From Eledone cirrhosa (lineage: Eukaryota), in assembly GCA_964016885.1 (NCBI GenBank), contig CAXHJY010001291.1, positions 1 through 22,824 of the forward strand: DNA of 22,824 nucleotides. The letters run 5' to 3'. The notes under the pieces were generated by a model, which saw nothing but the letters and a program-made list of their open reading frames with translations, made no database searches and was not told the DNA's origin. Positions 1,165 through 22,824 of the stretch are shown here, one piece after another; the first letter of the stretch is position 1; each line of letters begins with the position of its first letter. The position numbers were made by a program, and so were the translations under genes.

Positions 1165-2030
1165 TTAGGGAGAAGTGTTTAGACGGGGTCCGTATTTGTT
1201 AATAAATTAAGATTCCTTGCTGATGCGATTGGTGTGGGTGGCATTATCTTTAAATTTGTAGAGGGGAAAGATTCTGAAGTTGGGATGATTTGGGGCGGCA
1301 CAGGTATCAATATGTTCACTCAGTGGTATTTTCCTGTATTCCCGTATTTTAATTTGGGATCTATGGACAGTCATGCGTTGGCGGAGGCTGTTTTTGGTCT
1401 GGCCTATGTATTGTCCTCGATAACCTGAGCAAGTTAATACATATATTAGATTTTCCGATGCACATGCGAAATTGTGTTTTACTATAAAACGTTGTCCTTC
1501 TTTGAAATAGAATTCCGAACCCTCTATTAGGTTGATGCAAATGCCACAGTTGGGTCTATCGCATTTTTTTTACTGTGGGTTTCGTTATTGTGGTTGGCAG
1601 TACTTTGGCATGTGTTAGGATGTTTTTCATTGACTAAAGATTGTCTTTTGCTCTTTATGATATCGTGTGTTCGTAGGATTTGGTTCATTCTATGGTCCTT
1701 TTTCAACACAGGGATGTTCTGGAGGATGGTGTCAAAGTCCTCATTGTTGAGGGGGTTGTGTGTGGAGATGTATGGAAGAGCTTTTAGTTCCGGTTGATTT
1801 ACTTTAGGGTGTCTAAGTTCCTGGGTACTGAGTTTTAGGGCACGTTGGATTCCATTGTCAATTAGTGATGCAGGGTAGTCCCTGCCTATGAGTGTGTCCT
1901 TTAGTTCTTGTAGACGTAAGTAGCAGGTGTTTTTATTGCAGACTATAGTACAGATTCTCTTGGCTAAGTTGTAGGGAATATTGATTTTAACGTGTCTAGG
2001 GTGGCAAGAGTTGAAAGGAAGATACTGGTC
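1165..2030 (-). pseudogene. PLE RT C-terminal region plus GIY-YIG endonuclease pseudogene
   Basis: Manual translation: DQYLPFNSCHPRHVKINIPYNLAKRICTIV (RT thumb)...IIKSKRQ, frameshift near 1635-1640, SMKNILTHAK...TVKK, frameshift in the T-run 1564-1571, then CDRPNCGIC (Neptune-type Cys linker)...CASENLIYVLTCSGYRGQYIGQTKNSLRQRMTVHR...SEH...KES*FINKYGPRLNTSP*. Premature stop at 1207-1209; final stop at 1165-1167. Confidence 0.9.
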
Positions 2031-2760
2031 CACCCCACACACACACACATATATACACACACACATACACACGCGTACATTAACATACAAAGAGACTTAT
2101 ACACACACACACACACACTTCACCGTATAAGACAAGAGCTGAAAAATATCTTTTTACATGTTAAAATATCACCAACTCCCTTACAGACACATTCCTACTG
2201 ACCATCCCTCTACCACGAATTACTCTGCTACACACACACACACACACACACACTTCTCCTTATAAGGCAAGAGCTGAAAAATATCTTTTGACATGTTAAA
2301 ATATCCCCCACTCCCTTACAGACACATTCCTACTGACCATCCCTCTACCACGAATTACTCTGCTATACACACACACACACATACACACACACACTCACAC
2401 ACACACACACACACCAACTTGTCTTAATAGGCATTTGAACTGTCAACAGGCTGCGGTTCGCACACACATCCCTGCTAACTATTATCACAACAACGAACAC
2501 TTTACTACTACTACACACACACACACATATTTGTTGTGAAAGAGTCATTTCTCAGTCTTGGCGCAAAATCAATTTTTTACATTCACATGACCTCTACCGA
2601 CCAATCAAAATTGTTTTGACCACAAGAATTTTTGCAACACGAATTGGCGCAAAAAATAATTTTAATAGCGCCGGAGCCATTTTTTAAACATAAAAACAGG
2701 TAGAATTCCCAAAACTAATCAGATCAGAGCAAACATCACGGACGCTCTATCTCAAAATGA

Positions 2761-5270: not shown

Positions 5271-5274
<4 letters not shown>

Positions 5275-5440
5275 AACGAGTAGGACCCCGACGGCTGAGC
5301 TCAAGCCGTTTCGGCTGCTAATTCAGCTAGTTCAGCTCAGCCGTCGAGGTCCTACACGTTCCTATTACCACTCTACTACCCTAAGTATTGAGTACTTTGG
5401 TGCGATATGGTACATCTGGTTCCTTACCACATTTCCTTCG

Positions 5441-5441
<1 letters not shown>
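5271..5441 (+). mobile_element. Non-autonomous mini-insertion of the intact PLE family (inverted pLTR, partial pLTR, ~80-nt tail)
   Basis: Homologous to the reverse complement of 16997-17208. Ends at ...catttccttcgc(TA)n. Confidence 0.85.
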
Positions 5442-5495
<54 letters not shown>

Positions 5496-5496
<1 letters not shown>

Positions 5497-5673
5497 CGAA
5501 GGAAATGTGGTGAGCAACCAGGTGGACCATAACGCACCAAAGTACTCAATACTTAGGGTAGTAGAGTGGTAATAGGAACAAGTAAGACCCCGACGGCTGA
5601 GCTCATGCCGTTTCGACGGCTAATTATGTACTGAATAAATGGCTTGAGCTCAGCCGTCGGGGTCTTACTTGTT

Positions 5674-5677
<4 letters not shown>
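5496..5677 (-). mobile_element. Second mini-insertion of the same PLE family, opposite orientation
   Basis: acgaaggaaatgtgg...taggaacaagtaagaccccgacggctgagctc... matches 16997-17135. It is followed by a short inverted copy ending gttcc(TA)n. Confidence 0.88.
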
Positions 5678-6884: not shown

Positions 6885-7078
6885 GGGTGGTGGATTGGCA
6901 GAATCGGTAGAGAGTCGGACGCCTTGCTTTGCAGCAAAGAGTTACGGCCCTTTATGGTCTGAGTTCAAATCCTGCCGATGTTAACTTTGCCTTTCATTCT
7001 TACGGGGTCGATGAAATAAAGTACCAGTAATACACTGGGATAATTCCTGACCTTGTGCCAAGAGTAGAAACAATTATT
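6885..7078 (+). mobile_element. tRNA-derived SINE, same family
   Basis: TGGCAGAATCGG A box, GTTCAAATCC B box, same body, ends tagaaacaattatt. Confidence 0.9.
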
Positions 7079-7381
7079 CACTACGGTTACCTCGGATGGA
7101 CTCGGGGGGTAACTACAGTAAGTAAGGTAAGTAGGATACATAGCAGAATATTTAATATAGAAATGGCTTTTACATGACTAGATCTCTTTCATCTCCCGAA
7201 TGAAATACGTATTTCCATGTAGAAGCCATTTATATATATATATATATATATTCACAAGAATATCTGTTTTGTTAATATTTGGAATTTATATTAATGACTC
7301 TGGAAAATATTTTACTGTAGAGGGCTTCCAATCTATTGTAAAACTCATTATTTACTGTACTCATTGAATCTTGTGTAACTC

Positions 7382-10810: not shown

Positions 10811-11372
10811 ATATAGATATATTGTTATATATATATATACTGTTATATTTTTTTTGGGGGGGGGTCATATTGTTATAATATTAATAGAAATTAATAATAG
10901 AACACACTCACTGTTTGGTTTGTTTGGTTTTCGCTTCTGTATTTTTTATATCTCCATAGTTAATTTATTTGGCAATCTGTGTTTATCATTGATTGACCAA
11001 TGGTTATAAATTCTGATATAAATATATAGTCTATAGTCTATAAAAGTTCTTTCGTTGCACATCAGTAACATCATCAGTGGTACTTTTATGTTTCCTCCTG
11101 TTGTATTGTATGTAAATATATATATATATATATACACTATCCAGGAAAACTTGAACCGTTAAGATCTCCTTCCTGGATATGTCAATATTTATGAAACAAA
11201 CTTTGTATTTTATCTGATGAAAGCGTACCAAAATGTTGGTAATTCAACAAATATATATGTTTATAACTGATTCGAAGCACTCGACTGGTTTCTGGAGTAT
11301 ATTATCAATGGTATTAAATGAATGGAACTATATTTAGAAAACCATATTTATTCTATTATACATATTTCAAAT

Positions 11373-11490
11373 AAGTTCGCATCCCGCCGAGGTTAACTTT
11401 GCCTTTCATCCTTACGAGATCGATAAAATAAAGTACCAGTAATGTACTAGGTAATTGCTGGCATTGTGCCAAAAGTAGAAACAATTATAT
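11373..11490 (+). mobile_element. 5'-truncated copy of the tRNA-SINE
   Basis: Starts at a decayed B box; body and 3' end (tagaaacaattat) match the family. Confidence 0.85.
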
Positions 11491-11519
11491 TATATCATAT
11501 ACGTAGGAACTATTCAGCG

Positions 11520-11860: not shown

Positions 11861-12114
11861 GCCCTTATCTTTGACTGCCTTCACGATTATCAACATATTG
11901 TAAAACGTAAAGAAATATGTATTTTCCAAAACATAAACAGATGTTTCGAGTATTTACGTCTAATTAAATAAAATATTGCCTACAGAACCAAAGAAAAGAG
12001 GTGGAGTTTCTGACAGGAAGGCGAGAATTCTTACTTTGTCGAATAGAAGAAAGGAATGTTTTACACAAACAAACCTACACGCAATCACATACTTGCATTT
12101 ATATCTCTGTATGT

Positions 12115-13320
12115 ACACATGCATTTGGCGGTGTGTATGTGTACATGCATTTGGCGGTGTGTATATACACATGCATTTGACGATGTGTATGTATATATTA
12201 CATTTGACGATGTATATGTACACTGCATTTGGCGATGTATATGTACACATACATTTGGCGATGTATATGTACACATACATTTGACGATGTGTATGTATAT
12301 ATACATTGACGATGTATATATATACACATACATTTGACGATGGGTATGTATATATACATTGACGATGTATATATACACATGCATTTGACGATGTGTATGT
12401 ACACAAGCATTTGACGATGTGTATATACACATACATTTGACGATGTGTATGTACACATGCATTTTTTTCGATGTGTATGTATATATACATTTGACGATGT
12501 GTATGTATATATACATTTGACGATGTGTATGTATATATACATTTGGCGATGTGTATGTATATATACATTTGGCGATGTGTATGTATATATAGAAATGACG
12601 ATGTGTATGTACACATGCATTTAGCGTTGTGTATATACACATGCATTTGACTATGTGTATGTATACATGCATTTTTTTCGATGTGTGTGTATATATAGAA
12701 ATGACGATGTGTATGTATATATAGAAATGACGATGTGTATGTATATATAGAAATGACGATGTGTATGTATATATAGAAATGACGATGTGTATGTATATAT
12801 ATACATTTGACGATGTGTATGTATATATACATTTGGCGATGTGTATGTACACATGCATTTGGCGATGTGTATGTACACATGCATTTGGCAGTGTGTATAT
12901 ACACATGCATTTGACGATGTGTATATACACATACATTTGACGATGTATATGTACACATGCATTTGGCGATGTATATGTATATATACATGGACGATGTATA
13001 TATACACATGCATTTGACGATGTGTATGTACACATACATTTCACGATGTGTATATACACATACATTTGACGATGTGTATATACACATGCATTTGACGATG
13101 TGTATGTATATATGCATTTGACGATGTGTATGTATATATGCATTTGACGATGTGTATGTACACATGCATTTGGCGGTGTGTATATACACATGCATTTGAC
13201 GATGTGTATGTATATATGCATTTGACGATGTGTATGTATATATACATTTGACGATGTGTATGTATATATACATTTGAGGATGTGTATATACACATACATT
13301 TGGCGATGTGTATGTATATA
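12115..13320. repeat. 26-bp minisatellite, about 46 units
   Basis: Unit CATTTG(A/G)CGATGTGTATGTA(TATATA/CACATG), with clustered variants such as GAAATGACGATG. Confidence 0.95.
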
Positions 13321-13534: not shown

Positions 13535-13550
13535 TATAGGAACCAGTAAG

Positions 13551-13644
13551 ACCCCGACAGCTGAGCTCAAGCCGTTTCGACGGCTAATTCTGGACTAAAT
13601 GAAAATTTATCCTGGTATTTAAATAGCCGATCTTCTCAAGGGGT
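13551..13644 (-). ncRNA. Complete type I hammerhead ribozyme, U3-A8 variant
   Basis: ACCCC-UUGAGAA-GAuCGGCUA[loop]UAGCCGUC-GAAA-CGGCU-ugagcuc-AGCUG-UC^GGGGU. All three stems pair. Predicted cleavage between 13556 and 13555. Confidence 0.85.
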
Positions 13645-13881
13645 AATTCCATATATGGTCAAAGTGATTGTCAAAAATCAGTAGTAATTCTGTGGTTGCA
13701 AATTAGTAGGGGAGATGGTGGCTAAACCTGCCAGTAGGAGAAAGAGGGGAGGGGGTGGAGTAGACCCAATCAAGCGTTGGTAGTGCCAGCTACAGCTGGG
13801 CATGAGGTCAAAGAAGATACAGGGGAGGGGGAGGGGGAGGAAGTCGGAACGGTAGGTAGAACAATGGGGGGTAGAAATAGG

Positions 13882-13912
<31 letters not shown>

Positions 13913-14765
13913 TGAGAGTGAAGAAAGGCAAATAAGTGTAAAGAAAAGTAAAGTAAATTAAATTCTACGACCTAGGTGTCAGGCTATTGTTAGGCGAGAA
14001 TAAAATAAAGAAAGAAAGAAAGAAGTAAAAAAATAAATAAATGAATAAATAAGGAAATAAGTAAGAGAACTAGGTGGGACGAATAAGGCAAGGACCCTTT
14101 TAAGAGGTATAAGTACATAAATGATACGGTGACGGGTCAACAAAAGGGGCCAAAATACTAAAGAGACTACCACGAAATAAACAATAAAGGTTTCCATCCC
14201 GGGCCTGCAACGACCCAGTGCAGCAAAGTGAACTTGTACGAGATAATAATTCTGAGTCCCGAGAAAAATATATACTAATGCTAACTCTAAAAGATCTAAA
14301 ACAAGCTACATGAAAGTTCGTACGAAATAAAGGTAGAATACGGAGAAATAAATTCAGAATCCACCCCGCCCAGAAGAAGAGCGAAGCAAGAAATACTGAA
14401 ACGAAAAAATAAGGCATGTGCCACTAAGAAATATAGAGGGCACAGAGAATAGTGGGAGCGGTCGGAAAAAGGGGGAAAGTATCCGGGGTCTAAGCCAGCT
14501 GCTATAAAGGGCGGAGTCCGCCAAATCTATCAAAGACTAGTGGAGGGGGGGTGGGGGTACTAAGGCTACATGGGGCCAAAGGGCAGCCTCGGGTGGGCGA
14601 GAAAAGACGCCGACAAAGGAGAAGAGCTGGGGTAGAAGGACAAAGGGGAGAGGGGGGAAGGAAATAAAGGAAGCGATAAAAGAATACAAAGAAGATCTTA
14701 CGTCTTCCTTGGCAAGCAGGGGTTACCTATTGCAAAATCGGCAACTGGGGTGTTATAGCCCTAGT

Positions 14766-16919
14766 CTACCCCCCCGGGTCATTATGGGGTTTGAGGGCGA
14801 GGTAAGTCCTACGCAATCTATGTTTACATGCAGTAACCAGTTCATCTTTCTTGTTTAGGAGTTGGTCCGTCGAAAACAGCATTTGTAAAGTTTCCTCCGA
14901 GCATAAATTGCACGGACGGCGTCCTCCCGTGTAAGAATTGGCTCTGGACAGTAATCTCCAAGTGAGATCATAGGTGATGTTGTTGTCCTTGAGGTCCCAT
15001 ATGTGGCCCGAAAGTGTAGTGGCGTGACGCCGGGCCGGGTTTCGGAAGGTATGTCTATGTTGGTATAGCCGGGTCTTGAAGTCACATGCGGTAAGTCCTA
15101 TATAGGCTTTGTTGGAGGTATCCGTCCTCACGTTGCACTGGTAGATCACATTACGGTCTCTGCATCTATTGTCGAGTGGGCAAATAGATCTATCCGGGCA
15201 GTTACACCTCCTGGTCGGTTCTCCACTGCTAATTAGGTTATTTCTGCCATCGGGGTTGAGTTTTTTGTTGTTAGAGGAGACGATGTTTTGTGCGAAGTTT
15301 GGTGTAGTGCTGTAAGAGAGTTTGATGGTATTTTTGTTAATTATGTTGTGGTAGCGGTGTTGTAATGGGAAGTGTTTTTCAATGAGCCTAAAGAATAGTT
15401 TCCCGATGGGAGTAGTCACCTCTGCGTTGTGGGGAGGATTGAACCATGTTACATTGCGTGAGCGGCGGTGTCTCCTGCTGGTTCCGCTAATGGGAGCTGG
15501 ACAGTAGGATATTTCCTCCCGGAAACCACTCCGCTTGAGGGCCTGGTTGTAATAAGGCGCATGTTCATCGAATATCCGCTCATTAGCTGACAAACGGGAT
15601 ATGCGGAGGGAGATGTTTTTGACCAGGTTGTTTGTGATGTTCCTAGGATGGTTTGATCGGCGGTGGATGTAGTGCAGATTGTCATTAGGTTTCCTGTATG
15701 GGTAGTACAGGTCGTTTTCGAGGTCGAGGGTTACGTCCAGGAAGTTTACTCGGGTCAGGGACGTTTGTAGGGTTATTTTAAATCCCCAGTCGCGGAAGAA
15801 TCTGATTAATTGTTTCCGGACCCGATCTGTACTACTGGGGTTGTACCCTTTAAGGGTAAGGAGCCCATCATCACGGTACAATCCACCACCGAATGCAGGA
15901 AACATATCAGTGAGTTTGGCTATTAGGAATAATCCTATAAGATCAGTGACCTCCGCCGAATCCGTGGCGCCCATGCTGACGTCGAAGGGTGAGTCGGGAG
16001 CTCTTTTTATCCATTTAGAGTCGTCAAAGAGTAAGACTGTCTTCCTGGCGTGGAGGATGATTTTTCTTTCCTGGTCGGTGATGGGCACGAGTGTTTCGGC
16101 GAAGTCCAAGGCGGCAGTAAGTAGCGGTAAGGTGATAGAAGCATAGTAGCTCTCTATGTCGAACTGTATGAATTTAGTTTCTCGTTTATCCTCCATATTG
16201 CTGAACCAGGAGATTACTTCCTGGGTGTTGATCCATAGGCTAAGTCGGGTGTGTTGCTTGACTTTTGGTATCACGCGGTCTAGGATTATTTTGCTGATTC
16301 TCCCTATGTCGGACTTCGTTGGGTTAATAAGCCTGATGGAGGGTTTACGGTCAAAATCGGATTTATGGTCCTTCAGTGTGAAGTATGGTGTCCGTGGGTC
16401 TAGAGGTTCCGTGCGGTCGGCGACCCCGAGGCTGGAGGTGATTTGTTGTCCATCTCGATTTATGTCCTCGATACAAGAGTGGTTGGCCTTTTTATAGGTG
16501 GAGTTTAGGCTGCTCCTGATCAGTGTGTGGTATCTGTCAGGGTTGACAAAGTATAGGTTCCCAGTTTTATCCGAATGCACCATGATGTCATTTGTGTTAT
16601 CATACTCTGTTAAGTTGCTACGGAGTTTTTGTAGGAATCGGTTGTGTCTGGGTTTAAATTTAATGTTCTTGACCAGTTGGAAGAGGTCATTCTCGAAGGG
16701 TGCGAGCAAGGGGTTCAGGGGCGGAGATTTGTAGGTAATAAATCCGAATCTCTCCTTGGTGCCGAAGTCTTGGTTGTCGCAATATCTGTCATAGAAAAAA
16801 GTTCTCCATCTAAGTCTTTTCGCAAATAGATCAATTTTTTGCGTGAGCATCCGAAGGTAAAGTTTTTTCGGTGGGATTGGGATGTTCTTGGTAGAGAAGT
16901 CAATGTTGTGTTTTCGCAT
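14766..16919 (-). CDS. PLE polyprotein: reverse transcriptase plus C-terminal GIY-YIG endonuclease (717 aa)
   Basis: SDKTGN, TLKDHK...IRLINP, QFDIESYY (motif A), SMGATDS (B'), LYRDDG (C), NFLDVTL (E), YIHRRSNHP thumb, CNC-x5-CPL-x3-C linker, NVIYQC...YIGLT...FKTRLYQH, CNLCSEE...LLNK...CKH. Start context gcaccATG. Confidence 0.96.
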   Translation of the reverse strand: MRKHNIDFSTKNIPIPPKKLYLRMLTQKIDLFAKRLRWRTFFYDRYCDNQDFGTKERFGFITYKSPPLNPLLAPFENDLFQLVKNIKFKPRHNRFLQKLRSNLTEYDNTNDIMVHSDKTGNLYFVNPDRYHTLIRSSLNSTYKKANHSCIEDINRDGQQITSSLGVADRTEPLDPRTPYFTLKDHKSDFDRKPSIRLINPTKSDIGRISKIILDRVIPKVKQHTRLSLWINTQEVISWFSNMEDKRETKFIQFDIESYYASITLPLLTAALDFAETLVPITDQERKIILHARKTVLLFDDSKWIKRAPDSPFDVSMGATDSAEVTDLIGLFLIAKLTDMFPAFGGGLYRDDGLLTLKGYNPSSTDRVRKQLIRFFRDWGFKITLQTSLTRVNFLDVTLDLENDLYYPYRKPNDNLHYIHRRSNHPRNITNNLVKNISLRISRLSANERIFDEHAPYYNQALKRSGFREEISYCPAPISGTSRRHRRSRNVTWFNPPHNAEVTTPIGKLFFRLIEKHFPLQHRYHNIINKNTIKLSYSTTPNFAQNIVSSNNKKLNPDGRNNLISSGEPTRRCNCPDRSICPLDNRCRDRNVIYQCNVRTDTSNKAYIGLTACDFKTRLYQHRHTFRNPARRHATTLSGHIWDLKDNNITYDLTWRLLSRANSYTGGRRPCNLCSEETLQMLFSTDQLLNKKDELVTACKHRLRRTYLALKPHNDPGG

Positions 16920-17204
16920 GGTGCGGGTGAAAAGAATTGAGCTTAGCGGAAAAGTCTGGATGCGGCGTTATATATATATATATATATATATATATAACGA
17001 AGGAAATGTGGTAAGGAACCAGGTGGACCATAACGCACCAAAGTACTCAATACTTGGGGTAGTAGAGTGGGTAATAGGAACCAGTAAGACCCCGACGGCT
17101 GAGCTCAAGCCGTTTCGACGGCTAATTCTGGACTAAAATTATTCTTTTAGTCCAGAATTAGCCGTCGAAACGGCTTGAGCTCAGCCGTCGGGGTCTTACT
17201 GGTT

Positions 17205-17276
<72 letters not shown>

Positions 17277-18764: not shown

Positions 18765-18941
18765 GTATCAGTAGAGGGTTGGATGTCATGCTTTGAAGCA
18801 TAGAGTTACCTCCTTTTATGATCTGAGTTAAAATCCCGCCGAGGTTAACTTTGCCTTTCATCCTTACGGGTTCGATAAAGTAAAGTACCAGTAATGGCCT
18901 GGGTAATTGCTGGCCTTGTGCCAAAAGTAGAAACAATTATA
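18765..18941 (+). mobile_element. tRNA-SINE copy, A box truncated
   Basis: gtatcagtagagggttggatg...gagttaaaatcccgccgaggttaactttgcctttcatcc...tagaaacaattat. Confidence 0.87.
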
Positions 18942-19192
18942 TTTCCTTGTATTTTTTCTGTTGAAGTTATAGTTGCCTGATGAGGTCATAGCTGTTGAAT
19001 AATGGTTATCACAGAAATATATATTACAGCAAATATGAGTAAACAAAGTTAATTTTAAACTGTTGACTTACATTTGATGATATATATATATTATAGGAGA
19101 GAGATGTCGGTTTAACTCGTATTTATTTTCTACTACACATGTTCTGCCAAATGGCAGTCTCAAAACCGTACTGAATTACCTACAATTATGTT

Positions 19193-19380
19193 GCAGTGGT
19201 TTGGCAGTATCGGTAGAGGGTCGGACGCCATGCTTTCCATCATAGTTACGTCCCTTTACGATCTGAGTTCAAATCCCGCCGAGGTTGACTTTGCCTTTCA
19301 TCCTTACGGGGTCGATAAAATAAAGTACCAGTAATGCACTGGGTCCTTGCTGGCCTTGTGCCTAAAGTATAAACAATTAT
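19193..19380 (+). mobile_element. tRNA-SINE copy with 11-bp TSD
   Basis: Intact A and B boxes. ACAATTATGTT at 19182-19192 and 19373-19383. Confidence 0.9.
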
Positions 19381-19561
19381 GTTATAGTATCTTTTGATTA
19401 TTTAGGTCAGTGTCTCTTCAGACACTAGAATAATCTCCCTTTTATACGCTACAGAAGAGACGAGTAACAAAGAATTTAAATACTAACTGGAAAAAATATG
19501 CATTTTACCAAGCCTACATAAGAGAACAGGAGATTTGAAATATATGGCGGACCTTAGCAAC

Positions 19562-21880: not shown

Positions 21881-21984
21881 ATACATATATACATATATAT
21901 GCATAAACACATACATAAATTACATATTCAATTGCCCCCAAACATGTGTGACATAAAAAAACAAATTAATAAAAAAGAAAGCAT

Positions 21985-22824
21985 GTATATATATATATAT
22001 AAGATGTATATAAATTAGATGTGTATATTTAAGATGTATATATATAAGGTGTATATATATTAGATGTATATATTTAAGATGTATATATATAAGGTGTATA
22101 TATATTAGATGTATATATATAATATGTATATATATCAGATGTATATATATGAGATGTATATACATTAGATGTATATATATTAGATGTATATATATAAGAT
22201 GTATATATATATAAGATGTATATATATAAGAAGTATATATATAAGATGTATTATATAAGATGTATATATATTAGATGTAAATATAAGATGTATATACATA
22301 AGAAGTATATATATAAGAAGTATATATATATAAGAAGTATATATATATAAGAAGTATATATATAAGATGTATATATAAGATGTATATATATAAGATGTAT
22401 ATATATAAGAAGTATATATATATATAGAAGTATATATATAAAAGATGTATATATATATAAGATGTATATATACATGTATGATATGTATATATATAAGATG
22501 TATATATATACATATCATACATGTATATATACATCTTATATATATATACATCTTTTATATATATACTTCTTATATATATATACTTCTTATATATATACAT
22601 CTTATATATATACATCTTATATATACATCTTATATATATACTTCTTATATATATATACTTCTTATATATATATACTTCTTATATATATACTTCTTATGTA
22701 TATACATCTTATATTTACATCTAATATATATACATCTTATATATACATCTTATATATATACTTCTTATATATATACATCTTATATATATATACATCTTAT
22801 ATATATACATCTAATATATATAAT
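21985..22824. repeat. 13-17-bp TA-derived minisatellite (TATATATAAGATG/AAGAAG) with orientation switch near 22498
   Basis: AGATG/AGAAG units up to about 22500, CATCT/CTTCT units afterwards. Confidence 0.93.

Follow-up and report, generated by a model that had tools for sequence, protein, structure and literature searches.

A hammerhead-like sequence at the 3' end of a Penelope-like element (PLE) of Eledone cirrhosa raises the question of whether such a motif cuts transcripts in vivo and, if so, how many of them and in what form. We analysed the window that carries it, a stretch of 22,824 nucleotides that makes up the whole of one small contig of a 3.0-Gb genome, and counted copies by sequence-pattern matching over the organism's own genome, where a DNA similarity search, which skips common words, gave no match. 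The ends of these copies indicate that the U3-A8 hammerhead of this high-copy, Hydra-clade PLE likely cleaves a small share of transcripts in vivo and that most new copies come from uncut RNA, a reading to which we assign a probability of about two in three.

The element lies on the minus strand. Its intact ORF of 717 amino acids (14766..16919) codes for a reverse transcriptase with a C-terminal GIY-YIG endonuclease, and is followed by a 3' UTR of about 1.1 kb (13651..14765) and preceded by what remains of the 5' UTR (16920..16968), just upstream of which a (TA)n run stands in place of about 42 nt found in the tandem units. The motifs of the ORF (RWR at 37, DKT at 117, CxCX5C at 572, VIY at 591 and YIG at 606, CxxC at 670 and CxH at 698) are those of the Hydra clade, including an RWK-type motif and the C-terminal position of GIY-YIG; the (TA)n target and the 3' hammerhead also agree with that clade. 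The unit length of 3,542-3,543 bp exceeds the "generally under 3 kb" given for the clade, a figure that is descriptive rather than strict. Judged by these sequence features, the element is a Hydra-clade PLE of high copy number. No Pfam family was matched by the 717-aa ORF, the resemblance of its product to Hydra-1_Obim was judged by eye alone, and the product is 37% identical to a metagenome relative that carries a canonical hammerhead. Assignment to the Naiad clade was rejected as the endonuclease is C-terminal, and a non-LTR retrozyme was rejected as the unit codes for RT-EN, whereas retrozyme units are non-coding, tandemly repeated and a few hundred bases long.

Elsewhere in the genome (G000:C1:91473193-91493782) nearly identical units of 3.54 kb follow one another head to tail, and an inverted partial copy closes the array; the ORF was open in 4/4 units of 3,542-3,543 bp. 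This array is a likely source locus. In true tandem units the order is ribozyme, tail, a spacer of about 42 nt and 5' UTR. The window copy ends at +17 in (TA)n, and its transcript would therefore lack the downstream tail. The window also holds a 179-aa ORF fragment (1527-2066, minus strand) with motifs that may be those of the thumb in a Penelope/Poseidon-type RT, a different dispersed repeat of about 140 nt in four copies (6940-7079, 11352-11491, 18804-18943 and 19244-19383), and AT-rich minisatellites at 11960-13300 and 21900-22800 with periods of about 26 and 15 nt.

The motif itself is of type I with an extended stem I and covers 13539..13650 of the minus strand. Stem I (13644-13640 paired with 13555-13551) leads into the core U3 U4 G5 A6 G7 A8 A9 (13639-13633), in which U3 pairs with A8, as read from the sequence and the family census. 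Stem II (13632-13624 paired with 13586-13579) encloses an insert of 37 nt and, with its predicted internal loops and apical hairpin, spans 13579..13632. After G12-A13-A14-A15.1 (GAAA, 13578-13575) comes stem III (13575-13570 paired with 13562-13557), whose loop holds a palindrome (13569-13562); stem III and this self-complementary loop together (13557..13575) form the predicted dimer interface, on fold prediction and copy conservation. Cleavage is predicted after C17 (13556), which makes 13555 the +1 base (13555..13556). Beyond it, a 6-nt bulge and the outer strand of stem I (13539..13550) reach the copy end at 13539 (+17), adjoining (TA)n. Past the bulge, fold prediction extends stem I by pairing 13650-13645 with 13544-13539, and the hammerhead is the predicted minimum-energy fold of the region 13650-13539. 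Three helices surround the core, the motif being open at stem I, and U4 G5 A6, A9, G12 A13 A14, A15.1-U16.1, H17 and G10.1-C11.1 are present along with the Watson-Crick 3-8 pair of the window copy. Fold prediction also places a bulge in stem I and internal loops in stem II, with no tertiary contact assigned between the two.

All parts that a sequence-only reading had named were found at their places on the minus strand, and sequence, fold and ORF motifs bear out its claim that a PLE with an intact ORF ends 3' in a complete type I U3-A8 hammerhead. That reading missed the stem I extension and counted 5 bp in stem III; the stem is indeed paired and overlaps the palindrome, but has 6 pairs when A15.1-U16.1 is included. 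The fold energy is no better than that of shuffled sequences (z of -0.13 and -0.96), and Rfam hammerhead families gave no match in a search with 271 nt, nor among the 150 of 212 window matches that were listed; the absent match weakens only the assignment to an Rfam model. The motif is genuine and a chance origin is ruled out, since it sits where Hydra-clade hammerheads sit, its core region has 5,542 genomic matches, and core variants at a frequency of at least 5% occur, in a DNA run of the organism, only at positions 7 and 3.

The census defined how far the family departs from a canonical core. Exact matches to the 3' half were found at 34,569 genomic places, and the core-region pattern, with positions 3, 7 and 8 left free, at 5,542. 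U3-A8 was present in 77 of the first 100 core matches listed, C3.A8 in 1,349 of the 5,542, and G8 in 39, which comprise 6 C3-G8 and 33 U3.G8 cores. A Watson-Crick 3-8 pair is therefore absent from the 1,349 C3.A8 and the 33 U3.G8 cores, the latter wobble core marking a small divergent lineage. As only 6 of the 5,542 cores are C3-G8, a search confined to CUGANGA does miss the family, as had been predicted. Position 7 takes all four bases across copies; in contigs from a DNA run of the organism, which may be of the source sample, 24% had C3, position 7 was variable and no other core position, U4, G5, A6, G12, A13, A14 and C17 included, showed a variant at 5% or above; a run of a second organism, in which the region is covered in pieces, was left aside. 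Among 16 subfamily groups, no two-sided compensatory change was seen in stems I-III, which barely vary and of which I and II were also fixed by the search anchors. The tree of these 16 groups (176 columns, midpoint root, no outgroup) is compatible with loss and regain of the 3-8 pair and does not fix their order. Of eight metagenome loci with related proteins, five bear a small canonical C3-G8 hammerhead, in two distinct motifs. The presence of U3-A8, C3.A8 and U3.G8 cores on one natural scaffold offers a test of how strict the 3-8 pair is.

Position 13559 is the sole difference between the window motif and a 64-nt copy at 17137-17074. The difference, reported earlier from the sequence, was confirmed by this comparison; it is not evidence of a G-U change tolerated within one element, and the second copy is probably not that element's own 5' pLTR. 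Among tail-bearing copies of the window's group, T at this position was linked to one tail type in 32/34. The upstream piece is a fold-back stub (16996..17209) made of an inverted arm, a direct arm and a tail; it holds just the 3' half of the motif, without the core, and carries C at the 13559 position with another tail type, seen in 7 copies. Because this base and tail type belong to a sister subfamily, the supposed 5' pLTR is probably a separate insertion of that subfamily. As far as the copies tell, the base at 13559 marks a subfamily, of which it is the consensus; a compensatory-type change was rejected. A TA run takes the place of the spacer in the window, and the upstream piece resembles thousands of other fold-back stubs. 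Two further stubs of the same family and other subfamilies (5272-5451 and 5496-5676) are stacked in one TA tract.

Whether the motif acts alone or in pairs was examined by fold prediction. In the isolated 119-nt sequence the hammerhead was the minimum-energy fold, with a three-helix probability of 0.58 (37 C) or 0.77 (20 C), which, together with the 6-pair stem III and the bulged, extended stem I, speaks for a fast, self-sufficient ribozyme that would process each transcript, a version built on the earlier proposal that the motif could cleave as a monomer. U3-A8 cores are also stated in PMC3088659 to be active in vitro. In a 300-nt tandem context, however, the three-helix probability fell to 0.10 or less (0.10 at 37 C), while a rival hairpin that buries GAAA rose from 0.24 alone to 0.66 (37 C). 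The predicted double-hammerhead dimer, joined through stem III and the palindromic loop, reached -71.5 kcal/mol as against 2 x -27.5 (-55.0) kcal/mol for two monomers, an advantage of 16.5 kcal/mol before concentration effects. The six-base loop III palindrome was kept in 131 of 143 scored copies (184 found; the loci are not a random sample), and the sequence looks selected for pairing. Cleavage as a monomer is possible on these models, yet it is not favoured over the dimer.

The ends of genomic copies bear on how often cutting would take place. At the 3' side, copies end at two fixed points, +17 in 36/76 arms and the tail end in 30/76. An RCTC-N(13-16)-GAGY-RC hairpin occurs twice per tandem unit (+26..+51 and +104..+127), each 6-9 nt behind a fixed 3' end, and the pair is also found in the 37%-identical metagenome relative; in the window a small tail hairpin of this RCTC-N-GAGY type lies at 17043..17068 (minus strand), and its twin is missing from the window copy. 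The 5' ends fall mostly in stem II, at -34 to -53 in 103/128 arms. Genome-wide, the 3' arm of the hairpin at the apex of stem II (window 13590-13610) is where most short copies end, and the self-complementarity of this hairpin may let two cDNAs anneal. Copies that cross the cut site uncut number 14,680 in the window's group and 16,759 in the second main group. With most 5' ends in stem II and 31,439 such read-through copies, most templates were uncut at the ribozyme. Tandem arrays likewise run across the site intact, and of the spacer-anchored full-length copies, looked at in 90 of 361 places, most cross the ribozyme, with 5 ends at -2 to +3, too few for a comparison. Against the 14,680 read-through copies of the window's group stand 245 filtered starts at the cut base, and with the arrays intact, the tandem-context fold and the conserved palindrome, a fast monomer acting on every transcript is very improbable.

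Those 245 starts nevertheless form a sharp pile-up. Starts were counted by requiring three non-matching bases upstream of the match, with a stricter filter for the window's group. Over all groups, 903 starts at +1 were obtained before removal of G-run expansions, which made up 21 of the first 100 listed +1 matches and 5/30 fetched loci, the other 25/30 being true truncations; 53 matches fell at -3 and 77 at +5 (reversed-pattern control 6). In the window's group, 245 copies start exactly at +1, compared with 30 at -1, 10 of which look like +1/+2 joins, 10 at +2 (62 of 72 matches being G-run contractions), 10 of the 53 at -3 and 13 of the 77 at +5. A control site 23 nt upstream, preceded by the same heptamer, gave 86 starts against 34,569 read-through (0.25%), whereas +1 over the two main groups gave 412 against 31,439 (1.31%). 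The comparison is thus with five control positions and not with the whole profile. The +1 rate was 1.67% in the window's group and 1.0% in the second, a lower value that position 3 does not explain. The inverted partner arm ends at +1/+2 in 10/15 insertions with a detectable partner and at +1 to +3 in 4/31 control loci, a contrast somewhat inflated by the three-base mismatch filter, which favours symmetric junctions. Within the first 100 listed of the 245 copies, 13 arm pairs are split by a single A/T.

The predicted cut at 13556/13555 is thus backed by copies starting at that very base. A template physically ending at +1 would explain both the sharp ends and the concordant arms, and the pile-up is what one would see if a few percent of the RNAs used as templates were cleaved in vivo. 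Such a base-exact excess of cut-site insertions can be measured from the genome alone and yields a rough cleaved fraction per subfamily, 1.0-1.7% raw and about 5-6% if junction bases are taken as random.

A template could also begin at +1 if an internal promoter had its transcription start there, and a fixed RNA 5' end of this kind would likewise yield concordant arm ends. A capped RNA end is expected to add G. Of the listed non-expansion matches, 70/79 have T or A and 9/79 have G directly ahead of +1, and a base-exact coincidence of a start site with C17 would be unlikely. Promoters are reported in PLE pLTRs, according to the available part of a review (PMC6765202); even so, we find a start site at this base barely credible.

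The steps that would connect cleavage to the copies can be set out as follows. Tandem units would be transcribed through the ribozyme into the next unit, and the element's enzyme would begin cDNA synthesis at two fixed points that lie downstream of the ribozyme, at +17 and about +97, each strand of the cut (TA)n target priming one cDNA (twin priming). On uncut RNA the cDNAs would cross the cut site and mostly stop in stem II, giving fold-back stubs; on pre-cut RNA both would reach the end of the template at +1 and be joined, often with one A or T added, giving copies that start at the cut base. Cleavage would be slow or would depend on conditions, and probably involve either a dimer linked by the palindrome or help from protein. 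The cut would create a 5' end ahead of the ORF and deprive the upstream unit of the start signals that follow it, so that cleavage may trim or limit templates without being needed for insertion.

The C3.A8 lineage provides evidence against cleavage. A tail marker divides the second group into a U3-A8-type (9 U3-A8 and 1 U3.G8 among 10 visible cores) and a C3.A8-type (10/10). We had expected the C3.A8 lineage to lack the +1 excess, and this failed: C3.A8-linked tails gave 47 starts against 5,400 (0.87%) and the U3-A8-linked tails of the sister lineage 7 against 672 (1.04%; p = 0.66). The C3.A8-linked rate is 4 times the -3 background of the second group and half the rate of the window's group. 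The +1 excess is independent of the 3-8 pair, which counts against the cleavage reading. In one type III hammerhead, the available part of PMC9901934 reports rescue by C3G/G8C only, all other single and double changes at 3 and 8 giving low activity; since only the G3-C8 swap was active there, neither U3-A8 nor C3.A8 can be assumed to be fast. Further points against cleavage are that no RNA-seq reads ended at the cut site of the Anolis element, that two-sided compensatory changes are absent from the barely varying stems, and that the rival hairpin buries GAAA. The C3.A8 excess may reflect slow assisted cutting, trans cutting in a mixed dimer or, for part of it, stalling at the junction; mixed-dimer pairing of this kind appears once as a predicted fold.

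These rates fit a hammerhead-shaped scaffold with little or no catalysis, on which the +1 excess would come from reverse transcriptase that stalls at the three-way junction or at the long stem III formed between molecules, or from joining that favours the G-run. The amplification of C3.A8 to nearly a quarter of the 5,542 cores points the same way, as do the normal insertion in vitro of ribozyme-dead RNA of another PLE (available text of PMC11167929) and the fact that a structure, stem II, is in any case where most copies stop. A passive scaffold accounts poorly for single-base sharpness at the chemically predicted bond, for a share of arm pairs with a common end base that is much higher than in controls, for a matched upstream control five times lower, and for the constancy of U4, G5, A6, G12, A13, A14 and C17 while position 7 varies. 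We consider a non-catalytic scaffold unlikely, at a level still to be reckoned with, and prefer occasional cleavage. A stronger form of the cleavage reading, rather unlikely and offered tentatively, takes the copy ends as a fossil record of germ-line cleavage in which even the C3.A8 lineage was cut, by protein help or by U3-A8 RNAs acting in trans through the conserved palindromic stem III. If so, the family would have lost and regained the 3-8 pair, its subfamilies would share catalytic cores, and ribozyme activity in any PLE family could be assayed from the genome alone by counting +1 starts.

Compared with known systems, this is a precedented hammerhead variant in a known clade. The U3-A8 core is already published, and its supposed novelty in PLEs does not hold: about 1,300 such motifs are described in Schistosoma (PMC4209133), and natural U3-A8 hammerheads appear in PMC3088659. 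What is new here is the base-exact genomic footprint and the mismatch (C3.A8) lineage. In the literature searched, which covered few subscription papers, we found no report of PLE copies piling up at a hammerhead cut site and none of C3U/G8A data. With the C-terminal EN+ PLEs of the Hydra clade (Craig et al. 2021, PMC8557442, as available in part), the element shares RW[R/K], DKT, the CxCX5C linker, CxxC and CxH around E/N and the C-terminal GIY-YIG. Both also have a (TA)n target, a type I hammerhead at the 3' end, a tail on one side and an inverted partner truncated at its 5' end. The Hydra rows of File S2, in the portion available, all have a CUGANGA core, a short stem II and a loop III of 1-3 nt, whereas in the present family A8 is fixed (as U3-A8 or C3.A8), stems I and II are extended and long, respectively, and loop III is a palindrome of 7 nt; its unit measures 3.5 kb and its end copies exceed 34,000.

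The Cercyon-related PLEs of Schistosoma mansoni (Cervera and de la Pena 2014, PMC4209133) share a U3-A8 core in the pLTR and more than 1,000 genomic copies, and there too the motifs were found only after the descriptor was changed. According to the accessible part of that paper, they lack stem III and need dimers, in contrast to the full stem III and palindrome seen here, and it describes neither a C3.A8 lineage nor a copy-end footprint. The natural U3-A8 hammerheads of Perreault et al. (2011, PMC3088659) share the 3-8 covariation; in the part available they are not tied to the Hydra clade and no mismatch lineage is described. The in vitro activity reported for PLE hammerheads, in the portions of the literature available, is low, and the footprint bears on whether, and why, they cut in vivo. 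A further parallel is with PAc, the Poseidon element of Anolis carolinensis (Frangieh et al. 2024, PMC11167929), in which two internal start sites, seen in vitro, define the tail, both target strands are cut and extended, and uncut RNA is the main template, as we read the present family. Insertion of PAc proceeds in vitro without ribozyme activity. The PAc hammerhead is C3-G8, needs protein to cleave and leaves no RNA-seq reads ending at its cut site, whereas in the present family genomic copies start at the site.
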